Origin: a phage
Length of the DNA: 64,000 nt
Strand: one strand, 5' to 3'
Sequence record: PZ347775.1
In this document: piece after piece, positions 1 through 45,616 of the stretch
Numbering within the stretch: the stretch's first letter is position 1
How the letters are laid out: each line of letters begins with the position of its first letter
Notes under the pieces: model-generated
What the model saw: only the letters and a program-made list of their open reading frames with translations
What the model was told of the DNA's origin: nothing
The model's database searches: none
Program-made: the position numbers and the translations under genes

Positions 1-845
1 AATTAGTAAATGCGAATTTCTTGTACAAATCTAAATAATCAAGAATAGATACGCCATCAATAGAATAAATTTCTTTGCTACCGTACATATTTTGAATTAG
101 TTTAGATTTTACTCGACCGATTGGAGAGAAGCGTTTCATACTGCGTTCGCCCAGAACCATTTTAACACGATTCATGATATACGGAACGTCAAATCCCTCA
201 ATATTCCAACCAGTAAAAATAGCAGGTCGTTTCTGTTCCCAGAGATTAATATATTCCATGAGCATATCACGCTCATTATCAAATGGCATATAAATTACTC
301 GGTCAAGAATTTCTTGAGGAACTTCATCACCACCTTCACAGTCAAGTTTAGCAGCTAACTTTGCATCCCATTTTGATACTGAACCGTACATTGAATTCAA
401 CAAATCAAAGACGTAAAAACGGTCGTCAATTGAATCATAATGAGTGATAGCATCAATTTCATATTCTGCTTTCATTGGGTCAGGAAATTTATCGCCAGTA
501 ACCTCAATGTCACAGTTAGCTACACGAACAAATTTTCGGTCATAAACAATTTCTGAACCATATGTATCACTGATATAAGCGAGTTTAAAATCGTTCATAC
601 CGAGAGCTTCGAGACCGATGTCTTCCATTCGTTTCATCCAATCTCGGGCATCTTTCATTGATGGAAATTTTTGAGGAGCACAGTTTTTACCATAAATGTC
701 TTTGTATTTTGACTCTTCCTTACAATGCCTAAACATAGTCGGAAGATATTCTACTTCGCGAGTACGTTCCTTTCCGTTTTCATCAATATAACGTTCAACA
801 ATGCTATTTCCGACTGTTTCAATAGAGATATAAAATTCTTTCATA
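1..845 (-). CDS. 43: DNA polymerase gp43, N-terminal ~281 codons (gene continues past window start)
   Basis: Hand translation of minus strand from ATG at 843-845 gives MKEFYISIETVGNSIVERYIDENGKERTREVEYLPTMF..., matching the T4 family-B polymerase N-terminus as I recall it; absent from ORF track because truncated at the edge. Confidence 0.9.
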
Positions 846-1145: not shown

Positions 1146-1514
1146 TTAATTACCAATCGTATATTTTGGAACGAGTTTCCATTCATGTTTTTGTTTAAAA
1201 GAAATAACTCGGAAGTTATTGGTTAAATCTTTCATAAAAGTTCTTTGACCAGGAACGATTTCAATCAGCCCCCAATCTTCTAACAGCCATGCAATCGAAT
1301 CACGACGAACTTCATCTTCTTCTGTCATTTCAACCTGGCGACCATCCATACGAAGCATTTCTTTAAAATGAACGATATAGTATAGTCCTTTTTTCTGAAG
1401 AATATGACAGGACTGATACAGAACTTTATCTTTATTATTAGCAATTCCCATACGAGTCAGAGTTTCTTTAACTTTCAGAAAATCTTCAGGTTTTTTAAGA
1501 GTAATTTCAATCAT
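1146..1514 (-). CDS. regA: translational repressor RegA
   Basis: 122 aa, MIEITLKKPEDFLKVKETLTRMGIANN... matches T4 RegA from memory; conserved position upstream of 43. Confidence 0.9.
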   Translation of the reverse strand: MIEITLKKPEDFLKVKETLTRMGIANNKDKVLYQSCHILQKKGLYYIVHFKEMLRMDGRQVEMTEEDEVRRDSIAWLLEDWGLIEIVPGQRTFMKDLTNNFRVISFKQKHEWKLVPKYTIGN

Positions 1515-1515
1515 T

Positions 1516-2079
1516 TTACCATTCCAATGCTAGTTTTTTGAGTTGTTTCTGTTCTTTTACGTTCTTAGTCACTTCTTTCAAAAAATCATCCGTGACTAAA
1601 CCTTTTAGTTCTTTTAATACTAAAGGAAGTTTTCCATTTTTAGTAAGAATTGATTTATAGTTAATTGCATCATTTGTATTAACTTGATACCGCTTAGCAA
1701 GTAACTTAATAATCAATACTTCAGTAGAATCTTCGACCAGTTTTGCCCATTTACCATATCTTTTACCCCGAGGAACAGCAGCCATCAGGTAATTAAAATG
1801 GGCTTCATCGCTTAAACCTGATCCAATTAAATTCATAGCATATACAGCTGGCATGCATTCAGGAAATTGTGATAATGCATTCTCAACCATGTATTTTGAA
1901 TAATCTTTTTGAGCAATAGAGCATTTAGTTTTATTATTAATAGCTCCAATTATTTCAAAAAATTCATTTTCAGCTTTTTCTTTAAAAGAATCAGCAGCAG
2001 ATTGGACAGCTGTCCAATCTTTTGAATACCAAGCAACTTGATGCTCGTTTAATTGAATATCATCTTCAAATAAGCTCAT
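1516..2079 (-). CDS. 62: clamp loader small subunit gp62
   Basis: 187 aa, same length and position as T4 gp62, stop/start abuts gene 44. Confidence 0.88.
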
Positions 2080-31273: not shown

Positions 31274-31461
31274 TATTCTTCTACATGTTGTTTACGACCT
31301 TTCTTATCAATAAAGGTATATTCAACGAATGTTCCGATGTAGTCTTTATCTACATCATGTAGACTATTAATTGGGCATTTAGTACGGCAAATGCGTTCCC
31401 ATTGACGAATAATTTCCACTTTATTTTTAGGGTCAAACGGATGTGGGTAATGTGCTTTCAT
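31249..31461 (-). CDS. hypothetical small protein (tk.3 position)
   Basis: 70 aa ORF. Confidence 0.4.
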   Translation of the reverse strand: MKAHYPHPFDPKNKVEIIRQWERICRTKCPINSLHDVDKDYIGTFVEYTFIDKKGRKQHVEEYCLKVTWL

Positions 31462-31912
31462 AATCCACCACTATTAAATCAATATCAGGAGTAAACATGT
31501 CGATTAATTTAGAAACCTTATCCCAATCACCGCCAGCAATACCACAACCTATGCGTGGAATGTAAATTACTGGTTTAAACAAAAGGGTTTCTGCCTGTAG
31601 ATTTAATTCTATCATGCAATTTACTAAAGCACCATAATCAAGATTAGGACCCGGTTCGTATTGCGTATACAGGTTATAGCATATACCAAATCCCGTAGGA
31701 CTATGCTTAAAAACAATAGACATATCGCCTAATTTATCACGAGAACCGTATTCGGTAGTGGTTTTATCTATTTCTAAAATTTTGGGATAGGCTCTTGCTA
31801 ATTGACCCGCTACGCCAGAGCCCATTGTGTGGAAGCAATTGCATCCGTGCGCAATAATATTACCTTGAAGAAATAGGGCGACAATATCGCCCTTGATATA
31901 TTTTACAATCAT
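31433..31912 (-). CDS. macro-domain-like protein (putative ADP-ribose binding/hydrolysing)
   Basis: HGCNCFHTMGSGVAGQLARAYP and PRIGCGIAGGDW resemble the two glycine-rich ADP-ribose-binding loops of macro domains. Confidence 0.55.
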   Translation of the reverse strand: MIVKYIKGDIVALFLQGNIIAHGCNCFHTMGSGVAGQLARAYPKILEIDKTTTEYGSRDKLGDMSIVFKHSPTGFGICYNLYTQYEPGPNLDYGALVNCMIELNLQAETLLFKPVIYIPRIGCGIAGGDWDKVSKLIDMFTPDIDLIVVDYESTLPTSV

Positions 31913-32250: not shown

Positions 32251-32788
32251 TTACTATTTCCAACAGTTTATTATTTTTAAGGTAGTTAGCCTTTTCTAGG
32301 ACTTCAGAAGCATATTTAGAACCTGCTTTAACATTCCATCCCGAATTATAAGAGGATATTGCTTTTCTTATATCGCCCTTATGTATATTTAACCAATAAG
32401 AAAGTTCAATGTACGCCCAGGAAGCTGAATTGGACCGTTTATTCAACATTCTTTTTATTTCGGCATCGGTCATATTATAACCAAGTTCCTTAACTCTTGC
32501 ACGCATGGTTGGCAAATAATTTTGGAACATTCCGTAGGCATGATGTTTTGGTTTAGATTTTAAATTAACTCCGGCAGAGCTTTCTTGCCATAAAATGGCA
32601 GCCATTATATGACCTAATCCGCTCTTGTGGATATTTTTGTGTGTTTTATATTTTCCATCCTTAGAAAATTGTTCCCCGAATTGATACGCGTAACGCATGT
32701 TATCGAGTTGGACATTACTGAAAGTATGCTCGGAGCTATGTGCCATCATAGAAATGGCCAATAGACCAGCGAGTAGTGCTTTTCTCAT
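32243..32788 (-). CDS. secreted lytic-transglycosylase-like protein (vs.1 position)
   Basis: 181 aa, signal peptide MRKALLAGLLAISMMAHS, then ILWQESS...YGMFQ resembling the SLT catalytic Glu-Ser motif. Confidence 0.55.
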   Translation of the reverse strand: MRKALLAGLLAISMMAHSSEHTFSNVQLDNMRYAYQFGEQFSKDGKYKTHKNIHKSGLGHIMAAILWQESSAGVNLKSKPKHHAYGMFQNYLPTMRARVKELGYNMTDAEIKRMLNKRSNSASWAYIELSYWLNIHKGDIRKAISSYNSGWNVKAGSKYASEVLEKANYLKNNKLLEIVND

Positions 32789-32795
32789 GCTTACC

Positions 32796-33257
32796 TCATT
32801 GAGTTTTAATTACTGCTTTAGAAGCCTTTCCTGGTAAACGACGACTGTTGATAATTGCCATCCTGCATTGAAGCGACGGGTCTTTGAACTTCGCATTAGG
32901 TTTACAAACTGTAAATCCAAGCCAAAGATTTCCATCTGTGATTTCTAAACGCCCAGGACGATATTCAACACCATCAATAAAATCTTCGTCAATATCAGGG
33001 CGTGGAGGCATACTCAGGAATTCATTAACTTCTAAAACATGGTCTTTTATTTTATGGAATAATTCAAAAACATATGTCTCATCAATCTCCCGTTGAATTG
33101 CACGATCAAGAAGATGTTGAGAATATTTTAGATGAAACGATGAGACCCCTGCTGCTTTTGATGCCTCACGAATCTCATTGTTAATTTGACGAAACTCCGA
33201 CTCAAAGTGACGACGGAGCTTATTTCGACGGATAAAAACTTCTGTGTTGATAGTCAT
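32796..33257 (-). CDS. regB: endoribonuclease RegB
   Basis: 153 aa, MTINTEVFIRRNKLRRHFESEFRQINNE... matches T4 RegB. Confidence 0.85.
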   Translation of the reverse strand: MTINTEVFIRRNKLRRHFESEFRQINNEIREASKAAGVSSFHLKYSQHLLDRAIQREIDETYVFELFHKIKDHVLEVNEFLSMPPRPDIDEDFIDGVEYRPGRLEITDGNLWLGFTVCKPNAKFKDPSLQCRMAIINSRRLPGKASKAVIKTQ

Positions 33258-33316
33258 GTTATTCTCCTCTTAACTGATAGAAAAATTATACCACAGTCAA
33301 GAGGAAAAGTAAACAG

Positions 33317-33637
33317 TTATTCTTTAAATCTAATCAATTTATTCATAGACTTTGAAACTTCTGCACGAACCTCATGTAGGTTTTTAAGCTGTTCAAGACG
33401 TTGCTCATAGTAAGCAATTTCATCTTCTTCGAGACAGTCCTGTGAATCTTCTTTAAGATAACGTGCATAATCCTGGAAAGCTTTACGGACTACTTCCTGG
33501 AAGTCATCAAGACTTTGAATTTTCTTAGGAGCAACAGATACACGACGAGGGGCAGTATAATACTCATAACCAAACCCTGCGCTTAATTGAGCCATTAATA
33601 TTTTTCCTCTGGTTGAAACACAGCACGACAAGCCCAC
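33317..33637 (-). CDS. hypothetical protein (vs.3 position)
   Basis: 106 aa ORF. Confidence 0.45.
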
Positions 33638-33861
33638 ATACTAGCTTCTTTGAGTTTCGTTTTAGCAATAGTTAACTGATCGATGCTTTCAGCATAATTC
33701 TTCGCGAATTCATAGTCTTCACAATTATTTAGCACTTCCCAGAATTCGTCGTATAAAGCATCAAAGATAAGTCCTAAACGAACTTCAGCGTCTTTGATTG
33801 CATTCACTTTACCGATTTTCTCTTCAGTATGGGGCTTATAACCTTTAATGTCTTCAATCAT
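33595..33861 (-). CDS. vs.4: probable Acb2, anti-CBASS cyclic-oligonucleotide sponge (vs.4 position)
   Basis: 88 aa ORF at the vs.4 position downstream of regB; from memory T4 vs.4 encodes Acb2; sequence recall is approximate. Confidence 0.6.
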
Positions 33862-34075
33862 ATTCTACTTCCTCACCAGTACATAAATCATATTCAACTA
33901 AACGAATAGGTTCATGAATGCCATATCCTTGAACAGAAATTTCTGTCGTAGGATAAATTCCACTAATATCACCCATATTCCACGCTTCATTAAATTGCTG
34001 TTCGCCTGAATTACTAAACCACTCGGCGAAAGCATTTAGCACATCTTTAGAACCTTCAATAATTATCTTTGCCAT
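33854..34075 (-). CDS. hypothetical small protein (vs.5 position)
   Basis: 73 aa ORF. Confidence 0.4.
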   Translation of the reverse strand: MAKIIIEGSKDVLNAFAEWFSNSGEQQFNEAWNMGDISGIYPTTEISVQGYGIHEPIRLVEYDLCTGEEVEYD

Positions 34076-34449
34076 TACAGACTCTCGGTAAAGGTACGAG
34101 CAATAACGTCGCGCTGCTGTTCCGGAGTCAGAGAGTTAAAGCGAACTGCATATCCGGATACACGGATGGTCAGCTGCGGATATTTTTCCGGATGCTTAAC
34201 TGCATCTTCCAGAGTTTCGCGACGCAGAACGTTAACGTTCAGGTGTTGACCACCTTCAATTTTAACTGTAGGTTGTGGTTCAATTTCAATTTCACGGGCA
34301 TGCAAACCGTAGAAAATTTCCGGGTCTACAAAAGAGTCCTCTTTAAAAGTTTTAGAGACAATAATTCTTGCTTGAATACCGTCTTCAAAATAAATAGTAC
34401 CTTTATGCGTGCCTTCAAGAATTTGATATGCTTTCATATAACCTCTCAA
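34075..34449 (-). CDS. autonomous glycyl-radical cofactor, GrcA/YfiD-like (T4 Y06I-type)
   Basis: C-terminal [61 protein letters not shown] is essentially the E. coli GrcA glycyl-radical domain (RVSGYAV loop). Confidence 0.85.
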
Positions 34450-34826
34450 TTAGAAAATAAATTTATCCAAGATTGCTCTTTAATTAAAAATGGCTCAGAA
34501 TCATATGCCATTAAACTTTGGGTGATTAGTCCTTTAAAAGGCCCATCAATAAATTCCATGGTAAAATATGGAATTTTATTCATTAATCTTGCATTAGGAG
34601 CAGTGCACAAAACTCTGCATCCTTTGAATACGCCTTTTTGTAATTTGTATTGCTTAGGGTAAAATTCGCTCAAGACGTTGTTATTTGCCAAAATTTCAAA
34701 ATGATTCACCAATTTATTTTTAATAGTTTTTGGCGAAAAATAAAGATATTCGAAAAGTTGCGTGTCTGTCATCATTGCATTCCGATTACGAAAAACTGTG
34801 GACGAGTAATACCACCAATGCAACAT
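34446..34826 (-). CDS. hypothetical protein
   Basis: 126 aa ORF, start overlaps neighbour. Confidence 0.4.
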
Positions 34827-35359
34827 TTACTATTGCAGCAGTAATGTACAGTGTCAATATGGACACTATAAATTTTATCCATATCGGGAGCTTTAACAGG
34901 CTCATCGATTATATACAAAATCCGCGAAAGCGATAAACCTCTGAACTTGCTTCCTTTATTACCGATAAAACTACGGACAGAATCGGTAAATAAGCGGAAT
35001 CGAATATCATCGCCAGAATAACGAGAAAATTCTTTTTTAATGTGGCCTGCAGAAATTTTAGCGTAAGCTGAAGTATTAGAAAGAACAATAACTGTTCCAC
35101 CATCATACAGCCAATTAGCAGCAAAGTTAGTCACAGCAGTTGATTTACCGGATTGTCTGCCACCATCTAATCGAAGTGTGCAATACTGCTTGAGTAAGTC
35201 TTCAAATGGTGGGATATAATCGTTTTTACAAATTTCTTCTACTCTAGCATCAGAATGGTGTGTAAAAGCATTCATCAGGGATAGATAAGGACCAGTTAAA
35301 AATGTTCTCATTTTATTCTCTCTAAATTTGGGCCATTCCATGGCGCATGAATTGTCCAT
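34772..35359 (-). CDS. hypothetical protein with P-loop-like motifs
   Basis: GGRQSGKST (Walker A-like) and ILYIIDEP (Walker B-like); true start uncertain. Confidence 0.45.
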   Translation of the reverse strand: MDNSCAMEWPKFRENKMRTFLTGPYLSLMNAFTHHSDARVEEICKNDYIPPFEDLLKQYCTLRLDGGRQSGKSTAVTNFAANWLYDGGTVIVLSNTSAYAKISAGHIKKEFSRYSGDDIRFRLFTDSVRSFIGNKGSKFRGLSLSRILYIIDEPVKAPDMDKIYSVHIDTVHYCCNSKCCIGGITRPQFFVIGMQ

Positions 35360-35464
35360 TTCTGTATTTACCCATTACCGCACTTGGGCTCGACCTTATT
35401 ACAGGTTGGCGGGAATCCCTCATAGAACCATGAGGTCCAGCTTGTTCCCATATTTCTTATTTGC

Positions 35465-35938
35465 TTATTTGAATGATTTGACGTACTGAATAGAGCCTTT
35501 GCTATTCACGAAAGCGATTTTACCATTTTTATTATACATGGTAGCAGTACGCTGATAGCCATAAGTTTGCTTACCAGATTGATAACCAACTAATGCAAAA
35601 TTATCTTCACCCATTTTATTCTGTTTAGCACGAATGCGTTCATGCCCATGCGCCATAAGAACCTTAGCATCACCAGTTGCAATGGATCTACGAGTTTTTT
35701 CATCTTCAACTGTATTAACAAAGTCGTCAAATGAATCAAATTTAGCATGGGATTTATTATACAGTTTTCCATCTACTGCATAATTGTATCCTTGTACATC
35801 CATCTCAACTTCTGTACCATCATCTAATACAGCAGTGATTTTTTGACCTTTTTTAAATTTCAAAAGATCAGTAAAAGATTCAGCAATAATTTGAGAATTA
35901 ATAGCTGCTTCAGTAATAAATTCTTGATATGTTTTCAT
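35465..35938 (-). CDS. internal-protein-like capsid-targeted protein (N-terminal CTS MKTYQEFITEA)
   Basis: 157 aa beginning with the conserved capsid targeting sequence of T4 internal proteins. Confidence 0.65.
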   Translation of the reverse strand: MKTYQEFITEAAINSQIIAESFTDLLKFKKGQKITAVLDDGTEVEMDVQGYNYAVDGKLYNKSHAKFDSFDDFVNTVEDEKTRRSIATGDAKVLMAHGHERIRAKQNKMGEDNFALVGYQSGKQTYGYQRTATMYNKNGKIAFVNSKGSIQYVKSFK

Positions 35939-35954
35939 GTGTATCCTTTAATTT

Positions 35955-36272
35955 TTATTCTTTAGGGAAGTTTTTAGAATATGCATCATAAAGCTTATTT
36001 CCAATACGGCGGAAAACTCTAGCCGCAAAACGATTTTCTGGGTTTTTAATCATGATTTGCATCATATAAGTACCCGCGTCAGAAAGAGCTTCTTCATAGT
36101 ACCCGTTAATTTCTTTAAGAGTCCTACGTTTACCACCAGGACCATCAACAGTGATTTTCCATTTACCTGTAGAAGTGCGACTTGGCGGCTCAACTTGTTC
36201 AATCCAGATATAACCGCCTTCTACACGTTGTCCTTGGGCAGATTCTGCAATAAATTCTTTAAACGTTTTCAT
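35955..36272 (-). CDS. internal-protein-like capsid-targeted protein (CTS MKTFKEFIAES)
   Basis: 105 aa with CTS-like N-terminus, adjacent to e as are T4 ipII/ipIII. Confidence 0.65.
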   Translation of the reverse strand: MKTFKEFIAESAQGQRVEGGYIWIEQVEPPSRTSTGKWKITVDGPGGKRRTLKEINGYYEEALSDAGTYMMQIMIKNPENRFAARVFRRIGNKLYDAYSKNFPKE

Positions 36273-36343: not shown

Positions 36344-36874
<531 letters not shown>

Positions 36875-40904: not shown

Positions 40905-41378
40905 TTATTTGATTTGTTTAGCAGACCAAATGCGGTCTTTAATAATTTTTTGGATGTCTTCAACATACTCAAGAGAGTGAACATGTGGATTATCTTTGAA
41001 ACTATAGGCACGGGCTAACTTTTGGCCTTCGGTTTTGATTACTAAAAGCTCTTTAAGGATAGCTTCATACTTAGCGATAATTCCTTTAACAATATTTTTT
41101 TCTTGTGTAGCTTTAGGATCTGCTTTAGGAGCAGGTTTACCCGAAGCCTTTGCAAAAGCAGCACCAGTAGCAACTAAACTTTTCCAGGCCATACTAACCG
41201 CATTTCCCGTAAATCCTTCGGCTTTCATATCACGAGCAAATTGGAATCGTGATTCATCGGAAGCATCTTTATAGGAATATTTACCCGCGGCAATGGCAGC
41301 TTTTGCAACAGCTTGAATTTCAGTGCTAGATGCTTCATTTAACACCGCTTCATTTAAAAATTGAGCATATGATTTCAT
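40905..41378 (-). CDS. internal-protein-like capsid-targeted protein (CTS-like MKSYAQFLNEA)
   Basis: 157 aa, Ala/Lys-rich, CTS-like N-terminus; flanked by two near-identical hairpins. Confidence 0.55.
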   Translation of the reverse strand: MKSYAQFLNEAVLNEASSTEIQAVAKAAIAAGKYSYKDASDESRFQFARDMKAEGFTGNAVSMAWKSLVATGAAFAKASGKPAPKADPKATQEKNIVKGIIAKYEAILKELLVIKTEGQKLARAYSFKDNPHVHSLEYVEDIQKIIKDRIWSAKQIK

Positions 41379-42130: not shown

Positions 42131-42206
42131 TGGTCGAGGCAGTAGGGATCGAACCTACGACCTAGGACTTAGAAGGTCCTTGCTCTTCCTTCTGAGCTAT
42201 GCCCCG
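42131..42206 (-). tRNA. tRNA-Arg (anticodon UCU)
   Basis: Hand-folded cloverleaf on minus strand: acceptor CGGGGCA/TGCCTCG, anticodon loop CTTCTAA, T-loop GGTTCGATCC, encoded CCA. Confidence 0.8.
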
Positions 42207-42210
42207 TAAT

Positions 42211-42286
42211 TGGGGTGACCGATGGGAGTCGAACCCATGACTACGAGAATCACAATCTCGAGTTCTACCAACTGAACTACGGCCAC
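42211..42286 (-). tRNA. tRNA-His (anticodon GUG), no encoded G-1
   Basis: Acceptor GTGGCCG/CGGTCAC, anticodon loop TTGTGAT, discriminator C, CCA; resembles E. coli tRNA-His. Confidence 0.7.
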
Positions 42287-42400
42287 ATTAATACCTACTC
42301 CAACAATCAAGATGTCTTCACACGAAATTAAGAGAAGAGTGATCAGTTCAACCCCGATAATCGCGTCAAGTAGATATTAATGTGACAGTTGTCACAAATT

Positions 42401-42475
42401 TGGCGGACGTGATAGGATTCGAACCTATAACCAATCGCTTAACAGGCGATCGCTCTGCCATTGAGCTACACATCC
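42401..42475 (-). tRNA. tRNA-Asn (anticodon GUU)
   Basis: Acceptor GGATGTG/CACGTCC, anticodon loop CTGTTAA, T-loop GGTTCGAATCC, CCA. Confidence 0.75.
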
Positions 42476-42479
42476 AAAT

Positions 42480-42566
42480 TGGTGGGGAGTGATGGAGTCG
42501 AACCACCCGAGTCGCAATGACAATGGATTTACAGTCCACACCGCTACCTCTACGGGATAACTCCCC
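42480..42566 (-). tRNA. tRNA-Tyr (anticodon GUA), class II with long variable arm
   Basis: Acceptor GGGGAGT/ACTCCCC, anticodon loop CTGTAAA, long variable arm TGTCATTGCGACTCG, CCA. Confidence 0.75.
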
Positions 42567-42579
42567 TTAATTCTTAATT

Positions 42580-42654
42580 TGGTGGCCCTGGGTGGAATTG
42601 AACCACCATCTGGCGATTATGAGTCGCTTGCTTGAACCTTCCAGCTACAGGGCC
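42580..42654 (-). tRNA. tRNA with anticodon CAU (Met, or Ile if C34 is modified as reported for T4 tRNA-Ile)
   Basis: Acceptor GGCCCTG/CAGGGCC, anticodon loop CTCATAA, T-loop GGTTCAATTCC, CCA. Confidence 0.7.
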
Positions 42655-42655
42655 T

Positions 42656-42732
42656 TGGTGCTGATTGACGGAATCGAACCGCCGACCTTCTCATTACAAG
42701 TGAGTTGCTCTACCTACTGAGCTAAATCAGCA
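42656..42732 (-). tRNA. tRNA-Thr (anticodon UGU)
   Basis: Acceptor TGCTGAT/ATCAGCA, anticodon loop CTTGTAA, T-loop GGTTCGATTCC, CCA. Confidence 0.8.
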
Positions 42733-42736
42733 AAAC

Positions 42737-42826
42737 TGGCGGAGGCGATAGGATTTGAACCTATGAGTCGCCGGAGCGACTGCCGGTTTTCAAGACCGGT
42801 GCATTAAACCACTCTGCCACGCCTCC
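42737..42826 (-). tRNA. tRNA-Ser (anticodon UGA), class II
   Basis: Acceptor GGAGGCG/CGCCTCC, anticodon stem CCGGT/ACCGG with loop CTTGAAA, long variable arm, CCA. Confidence 0.8.
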
Positions 42827-42828
42827 AG

Positions 42829-42902
42829 TCTCCATACAAGGATTTGAACCTTGGACCTCCTGATCCCAAATCAGGCGCTCTACCAAACTGAGCTACACGG
42901 AG
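42829..42902 (-). tRNA. tRNA-Pro (anticodon UGG), CCA not encoded
   Basis: Acceptor CTCCGTG/TATGGAG, anticodon loop TTTGGGA, T-loop GGTTCAAATCC; 3' end is A-CU not CCA. Confidence 0.75.
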
Positions 42903-42912
42903 TAAATTAAAT

Positions 42913-42986
<74 letters not shown>

Positions 42987-42991
42987 AAATT

Positions 42992-43078
42992 TGGTGCGAG
43001 AAGTGGGACTCGAACCCACAAGGAAATCATTCCGCAGCATTTTAAGTGCTGTGCCTTTACCAATTTGACCATTCTCGC
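42992..43078 (-). tRNA. tRNA-Leu (anticodon UAA), class II
   Basis: Acceptor GCGAGAA/TTCTCGC, anticodon stem CAGCA/TGCTG with loop CTTAAAA, long variable arm, CCA. Confidence 0.8.
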
Positions 43079-43079
43079 G

Positions 43080-43152
43080 CTGGGAATAAAGGACTCGAAC
43101 CTTTGCATCCTGGAATCAAAATCCAGTGCCTTACCAACTTGGCTAATTCCCA
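43080..43152 (-). tRNA. tRNA-Gln (anticodon UUG), CCA not encoded
   Basis: Acceptor TGGGAAT/ATTCCCA, anticodon loop TTTTGAT, T-loop GGTTCGAGTCC; first gene of the cluster. Confidence 0.8.
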
Positions 43153-44198: not shown

Positions 44199-44507
44199 CT
44201 ATTTTATTCCGCGTGATGCAATTGTGTTCTGCCGTTTAACACCAGTTTGTTTAAAGTCATGATTGTCGATTTGATCGGTACGAGCAACACCGAATGATGA
44301 TTTAATCTTAGCTTTAGATCCTTTAGTTATAGAAATAAACATCTCGGAAGCCCCTTTCTTAAAGTCCGAGGCGATTACTTCAACGCCGTTCTTAGCAAGT
44401 GACCTCAGAATTGCCTCCGCGTACTCATCATCAAGACTCGCCTGAGTATTAATAACGAATGTCTTTGGTGCAGTCGCTTCATTGATAAATTCTTGATATG
44501 TTTTCAT
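44199..44507 (-). CDS. internal-protein-like capsid-targeted protein (ipI locus; ORF track to 44519; CTS MKTYQEFINEA from internal Met)
   Basis: CTS motif 4 codons into the ORF; position upstream of 57B matches the T4 ipI locus. Confidence 0.6.
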   Translation of the reverse strand: MKTYQEFINEATAPKTFVINTQASLDDEYAEAILRSLAKNGVEVIASDFKKGASEMFISITKGSKAKIKSSFGVARTDQIDNHDFKQTGVKRQNTIASRGIK

Positions 44508-44574
44508 TTTGATTTCCATTTAGTTTTGTTTTGATAGGGTAATAGTATCACAACTAAACCACCGTGTAAACAAT

Positions 44575-44847
44575 TTATTTTAAATAAATTGCATATTTTT
44601 TATAACCAGCCGTCTCGTGACGCAGACCTTTTTCATTAGCAAAGCGTTCAATATTATTAATTTGATTCTGATCAAGTTCTGAAATATCAAATACAAAAAA
44701 GTTTCGTTTATTTCCTAACGTTACATGATTCGTCAAATCAATGTTATAAAGATGATTTATATTATCAATCATAGTCTTAACAGATTTGCTAATTTTTACT
44801 TCTTCATTAAGAGCAGATTCAACGATAAACTCTTTGAAAGTTTTCAT
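44575..44847 (-). CDS. internal-protein-like capsid-targeted protein (CTS MKTFKEFIVES)
   Basis: 90 aa with CTS N-terminus. Confidence 0.6.
   Translation of the reverse strand: MKTFKEFIVESALNEEVKISKSVKTMIDNINHLYNIDLTNHVTLGNKRNFFVFDISELDQNQINNIERFANEKGLRHETAGYKKYAIYLK

Positions 44848-44919: not shown

Positions 44920-45616
<697 letters not shown>

Follow-up and report, generated by a model that had tools for sequence, protein, structure and literature searches.

The 88-aa open reading frame (ORF) at 33595..33861, on the minus strand of this phage DNA, is very probably the orthologue of T4 vs.4 (Acb2), acting as a cyclic-dinucleotide sponge in a Tequatrovirus genome; we put the probability of this reading at about 0.93. 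We analysed the whole 64-kb stretch, referred to here as the window, for which a preliminary description had placed an 88-aa ORF at 33595-33861, in the vs.4 position, and called it a probable Acb2. The ORF listing returned the same coordinates on the minus strand, synteny with annotated relatives confirmed the position, and homology searches made the name a firm one. The gene is an ordinary, already described one: its protein sequence is already public, and structure and mechanism have been published. The features of the locus, in the order of transcription, are as follows.

33854..34075 (-): vs.5 orthologue, 73 aa, immediately upstream of acb2 in the same transcription unit (ORF listing, synteny)
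33868..33874 (-): Shine-Dalgarno-like GAGGAAG before the acb2 ATG, within the last vs.5 codons (read from the sequence; putative function)
33854..33861 (-): 8-nt overlap ATGATTGA, containing the acb2 start codon and the vs.5 TGA stop (ORF coordinates, sequence)
33595..33861 (-): acb2 (vs.4) coding sequence, ATG start, 88 aa plus TAA stop (ORF listing, homology, synonymous-dominated divergence)
33593..33597 (-): TAATG overlap, in which the acb2 stop and the vs.3 ATG have one base in common (sequence)
33317..33595 (-): vs.3 orthologue, 92 aa from the ATG at 33595, immediately downstream of acb2 (ORF listing, synteny)
32796..33257 (-): regB endoribonuclease, downstream of vs.3 (Pfam REGB_T4, 230 bits; annotated in relatives)

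The search against T4 Acb2 was unambiguous. Across all PDB sequences (phmmer), the protein matched T4 Vs.4 (PDB 7UQ2) from end to end with 84 of 88 residues identical (95%; E 2.8e-54), and the next matches were to PaMx33 Acb2 (8H2J and 8IXZ; E about 0.05, residues 4-85). The single Pfam match was PF24729, Acb2_Tad1_hairpin, at 70.9 bits (gathering cut-off, 27 bits), and the PHROGs match was phrog_717 (E 5.8e-32), the family used by Jenson et al. to enumerate Vs.4 homologues (PMC10097602). Homologues were found by tblastn in 1,233 of 50,697 phage records, nine of which encode a protein of at least 99% identity. The vs.4 product of phage ime09 (AEK12376.1) is 100% identical, and in phage P8, a close relative, the same slot is already annotated as 'anti-CBASS protein 2'. 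NCBIfam contained no model matching Acb2 or Acb1, and neither was matched in PADLOC-DB, as expected of a library that collects defence proteins and not anti-defence ones.

The small (about 90 aa) helical hairpin fold expected of Acb2 is implied by the 95% identity to a crystal structure and was also recovered in a single-sequence AF2 model, with helices at residues 13-46 and 50-81. This model is of moderate quality (pLDDT 78; TM about 0.6 to 7UQ2) and serves as a check of the monomer fold only, not for mapping substitutions. A Foldseek search of the PDB with the model placed three 7UQ2 chains first (E about 1e-9), followed by PaMx33 Acb2 (8H2X and 8H2J).

The pattern of nucleotide divergence is that of a protein-coding gene. 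All 12 nucleotide differences between acb2 and ime09 vs.4 are synonymous, and 16 of the 20 that separate it from T4 vs.4 fall at third codon positions; the 20 amount to 15 synonymous and 4 non-synonymous codon changes. These substitutions show purifying selection. Because the divergence is synonymous and third-position-biased, and because the ORF is homologous to a protein of solved structure, acb2 is a real gene and not a chance ORF. Its ends are tightly packed against its neighbours, in the overlapping start and stop arrangement that is typical of T4 early genes. The GAGGAAG lies 6-9 nt from the acb2 ATG; the ATGATTGA overlap with vs.5 is, as read from its sequence, an arrangement of apparent translational coupling; and the vs.3 start within the TAATG is also where the annotations of ime09, P8 and HY01 put it.

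The order of genes and the junctions between them (vs.5-vs.4-vs.3-regB) match those of ime09, P8, HY01, sutha, fHoEco02, GiZh and REP2. In relatives, the minus-strand order of the region is Ip4, vs.8, vs.7, vs.6 (GrcA-like), vs.5, vs.4, vs.3, regB, vs.1, vs, tk.4, and the vs.6 of the window is likewise a glycyl-radical protein by Pfam match. The preliminary description had put the ORF downstream of regB, which reverses the direction of transcription: on the minus strand the order is vs.5, vs.4, vs.3 and then regB, so vs.4 is transcribed before regB and the earlier wording is true in plus-strand coordinates only. Matches to vs.3 in Pfam were all below threshold, and vs.5 had none in Pfam or PADLOC. 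Given these absent or sub-threshold family matches, no function can be attached to either of the genes apparently coupled to acb2 in translation.

A scan of 32700..35600 for sigma-70 promoters and terminators gave 8 sites, against 9.0 expected from shuffled sequence. The only two suggestive promoter-like sites in this interval were TTGACA-17-AATAGT at 34857..34829 and TTTACT-17-TATAAT before regB. Because sigma-70-like matches were no commoner than in the shuffled control, we assign no promoter to the operon. The ribosome-binding site of regB (33258..33285, minus strand) reads AAGAGGAGAATAACATG and contains GGAG, which is the RegB cleavage target according to GenBank notes in relatives. Those of acb2 and vs.3 (GAGGAAG and AGAGGAAAAA, respectively) are without GGAG. 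This distribution fits self-targeting of regB, with acb2 translation possibly spared.

Tequatrovirus genomes, among them HY01, PEC04 and ime09, match the 2.7 kb around acb2 at 97.5% identity, and the best match to a 25-kb slice was ECO07P3, with 97.1% identity over 93% of the slice. These identities mark the window as a mosaic T4-like Tequatrovirus that is identical to no record in the phage collection. Phage ime09 encodes the identical Acb2 protein in a syntenic position but differs at the 12 synonymous nucleotides, in a surrounding genome that is only about 97% identical, and in carrying denV in the place of the window's internal-protein-like ORF.

We made several further observations in the window. 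The UV-repair endonuclease V gene, denV, was not found by tblastn in the 64 kb. In T4-like relatives, ime09 and HY01 among them, it lies between an internal-protein gene and e; the corresponding slot of the window, between an Ip4-like gene (35465..35938) and the e lysozyme gene (36344..36838), holds a 105-aa ORF (35955..36272, minus strand) whose N-terminus, MKTFKEFIAESA, is of the internal-protein type and which has no Pfam match. The denV-less arrangement also occurs in G50, REP4, Ozark and others, with 74 records covering at least 80% of the stretch. Five ORFs, all on the minus strand (35465..35938, 35955..36272, 40905..41378, 44199..44519 and 44575..44847), begin with a common MK(T/S)(Y/F)xEF(I/L)xE(A/S) motif, which resembles the leader that targets T4 internal proteins to the capsid. 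A family match was obtained only for the one at 35465..35938 (DUF7412; internal virion protein in relatives); the other four have no Pfam match. The five may be diversified injected internal proteins with possible anti-restriction roles.

The window also carries 11 tRNA genes at 42131..43152 (minus strand), for Arg, His, Asn, Tyr, Met(CAT), Thr, Ser, Pro, Gly, Leu and Gln. T4 has 8 tRNA genes. Relative to these, the His, Asn and Tyr genes would be extras, and the tRNA with the CAT anticodon may correspond to the T4 tRNA-Ile. At the tk.4 position, a 159-aa ORF (31433..31912, minus strand) matches the Macro domain PF01661 at 32 bits (cut-off, 22 bits) and is labelled 'phosphatase' or 'macro domain protein' in relatives. 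It might take off ADP-ribose marks or act on signals derived from ADP-ribose.

What is known of T4 Vs.4 allows the functional residues of the protein to be read directly. The T4 protein is a hexamer that binds three molecules of 3',3'-cGAMP with a Kd of about 30 nM (PMC10097602); a second study gives about 84 nM (PMC10312549). Base stacking falls to Y8 and F82 and polar contacts to Y8, H11, K23 and R79; S74 is located at the ligand and T12 caps a helix, with L29, F33, A66, A73 and A77 at the hexamer interfaces; inhibition of CapV is lost when contact, cap or interface residues are mutated (PMC10097602). The window protein keeps every one of these residues (Y8, H11, T12, K23, L29, F33, A66, A73, S74, A77, R79 and F82). 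Like its T4 counterpart (7UQ2; Jenson et al. 2023, PMC10097602), it has 88 aa and occupies the slot between vs.5 and vs.3 with the same overlapping packing. It differs from T4 Acb2 at only four positions, A43V, D45N, C50Y and L60I.

To place these four substitutions, we aligned 11 full-length natural homologues of 51-95% identity from Tequatrovirus, Gaprivervirus, Pseudotevenvirus, Klebsiella phages and one Phapecoctavirus. The pocket residues Y8, H11, K23, S74, R79 and F82 were invariant in these Straboviridae and Phapecoctavirus proteins. Residues 1-34 and 69-88 were almost invariant overall, and residues 35-68 varied freely, indels included; alleles more than 87% identical had any of C, Y, F or D at position 50. 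All four differences from T4 thus fall in a naturally variable segment in which change is tolerated. L60F was recovered in a screen for CBASS sensitivity in T4, but the L60F protein still inhibited CapV in vitro (PMC10097602), and Klebsiella, Gaprivervirus and Pseudotevenvirus homologues have I60 natively. L60I is likely to be neutral, because I60 is native in several genera and L60F still blocked CapV; on the same grounds we set it aside as a functionally important change.

The residues that govern trinucleotide binding also follow the T4 pattern. PaMx33 Acb2 (8H2J, 8H2X and 8IXZ; Huiting et al. 2023; Cao et al., PMC10312549) is of the same family and fold, and its essential dinucleotide-binding pair Y11/K26 corresponds to Y8/K23 in the window protein; by analogy, the sponge mechanism, a hexamer holding three cyclic dinucleotides, would be the same. 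However, the two proteins are only about 23% identical, and the PaMx33 protein has a second pocket (R67, T74 and a helix kink at E64) that binds cA3 and cAAG, whereas the T4 type has D61 and an unkinked helix. T4 Acb2 binds neither cA3 nor cAAG, its equivalent of R67 being D61 (Cao et al., PMC10312549). Y37, A57, L60, D61 and T64, which the unkinked helix brings into the would-be cA3 pocket, have been proposed to occlude it, and even D61R did not rescue cA3 binding (PMC10312549). The window protein has Y37, A57, I60, D61, T64 and T68, all as in T4 except for I60; of the residues of a PaMx33-type dual pocket, T68 (equivalent to T74) is present and the R67 equivalent is D61. With these residues, the protein should be a dinucleotide-only sponge that by analogy takes up cyclic dinucleotides and not cA3. 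The Tad1 sponge has in common with it the Pfam Acb2/Tad1 hairpin domain and, as a general strategy, sequestration of immune nucleotides. Tad1 proteins are larger and bind gcADPR via additional elements. Beyond the hairpin domain, the window protein shows no apparent sign of Tad1-type activity.

Homologues in two other phages illustrate the fate of the gene elsewhere. In Escherichia phage vB_EcoM_EP32a, a Mosigvirus, the acb2 homologue (1495..1623) encodes 42 aa, of which the first ~30 residues are conserved before the frame is lost; vs.3 is missing, and regB follows almost directly after the shortened acb2. To judge from its sequence, EP32a seems to have lost Acb2 naturally, and hosts whose decoy defences sense Acb2 could conceivably have favoured the loss. 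Escherichia phage vB_EcoM_ASO2A (Phapecoctavirus, Stephanstirmvirinae), which lies outside Straboviridae, encodes an Acb2 (395..664) that is 76% identical to that of the window; the pocket segments at both termini are the same in the two proteins, but the genes have different neighbours. The presence of this protein outside Straboviridae, among other neighbours, suggests horizontal transfer of T4-type acb2 between phage lineages.

The variable centre invites a different interpretation of the four substitutions, namely that A43V, D45N, C50Y and L60I alter the ligand spectrum of an Acb2 orthologue relative to T4, through discrimination against decoys or through a second pocket. Hypervariability over residues of about 35-68 between nearly invariant termini, with C, Y, F or D at position 50, would agree with this, as would the placement of L60 in the lining of the vestigial trinucleotide pocket of T4 Acb2 and the different binding spectra of Acb2 homologues (PMC10312549); decoy systems have also been argued to select for sponge specificity (PMC12393519). 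If it were true, the window protein might, for example, capture less 2',3'-c-di-AMP or accept a new ligand in the vestigial pocket lined by residue 60. However, the invariant residues near the two termini that make up the dinucleotide pocket are all unchanged; the change from L to I is conservative and D61 is kept, when even D61R failed to give T4 Acb2 cA3 binding; and the published T4 escapers of the Panoptes defence are loss-of-function or binding-site (F82C) mutants, none of them mid-protein. Relaxed constraint explains a variable centre equally well. We consider a changed spectrum improbable, and give similarly long odds to the more specific proposal that the centre is under diversifying selection on a secondary surface or pocket, such that the window allele binds other nucleotides than T4 Acb2.

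Still less probable is that the gene is a decaying or non-functional copy, kept by its position and yielding no working sponge. Relatives do lose the gene naturally, as the EP32a truncation to 42 aa and loss of vs.3 illustrate, and Acb2 is a liability on Panoptes-carrying hosts (PMC12657218). In the window, however, the frame is full-length with every known functional residue intact, the divergence from ime09 is wholly synonymous, the Shine-Dalgarno sequence and the coupled start and stop are preserved, and other phage isolates (the nine records with at least 99% identity) carry the identical protein. That the ORF arose by chance, or that the real gene lies on the opposite strand, has a negligible probability: an AT-rich context in which short ORFs are common is all that speaks for it, and the opposite strand offers only ORFs of at most 46 aa in the ORF listing. 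The match to a solved protein at E 2.8e-54, the third-position-biased substitutions and the coding sequence annotated at this place in many phages all argue against a chance ORF, which we excluded on the homology to 7UQ2 and the substitution bias.

The preliminary description had also pointed to Acb1 (57B) elsewhere in the window and, with it, to two layers of anti-CBASS activity. Acb1 is indeed present:

44920..45375 (-): acb1 (gene 57B), 151 aa, 2H-phosphoesterase-type cyclic-oligonucleotide nuclease (PF23474, 7T26, HxT motifs, synteny)

This ORF, directly downstream of 57A (PF17594) and gene 1, matches Pfam PF23474 (Acb1) at 202.7 bits (cut-off, 27 bits) and the Acb1 crystal sequence 7T26 at E 4.1e-62. 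Both HxT motifs are intact (H43-S-T45 and H112-I-T114) and match, with a one-residue offset, the T4 catalytic tetrad H44/T46/H113/T115 (PMC9117128). The genes for both layers are therefore in place, and their activity would follow by analogy with T4. The pairing of Acb1 and Acb2 is real in the window but already published for T4, which was explicitly stated to encode both (Cao et al., PMC10312549). In T4, vs.4 gives an early RNA and a middle protein, and 57B a middle RNA and a late protein (PMC9697503 supplement). By analogy, the two layers may divide the work in time, the sponge coming into action before the nuclease.

From the T4 work, we would expect the following of the protein's assembly, its ligands and affinity, the timing of its expression and its anti-CBASS effect in vivo. 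The early vs.8-regB transcription unit would express an acidic helical protein of ~10.3 kDa, which, as in T4, would assemble into an interlocked hexamer with three dimer-interface pockets, each predicted to bind, at nanomolar affinity, one 3',3'-cGAMP or other cyclic dinucleotide of CBASS. Y8 and F82 would stack on the bases, and Y8, H11, K23 and R79 would supply hydrogen bonds and salt bridges. The signal would be sequestered and not degraded, effectors such as CapV would stay inactive and phage replication could be completed. In T4, deletion of vs.4 lowers plating about 50-fold on a cGAMP-type CBASS host weakened in Cap2. Cyclic trinucleotides would not be bound by Acb2 and would be left to the co-encoded nuclease Acb1 (57B), later in infection.

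The same pocket may also expose the phage to a second type of defence. T4 Acb2 takes up the decoy 2',3'-c-di-AMP (Kd about 62 nM) and by doing so triggers the OptSE defence, and 14 of 15 T4 escapers of Panoptes carried acb2 mutations, namely frameshifts, stops, deletions and F82C (PMC12657218). Since the window protein retains Y8 and F82, we predict that the phage is sensitive to Panoptes.

In annotation, the name acb2 can be used with confidence. The pair of Acb1 and Acb2 predicts broad evasion of cGAMP- and cAAA-type CBASS, and the predicted combination of CBASS evasion with Panoptes sensitivity would be useful for judging host range and for choosing therapeutic phages.
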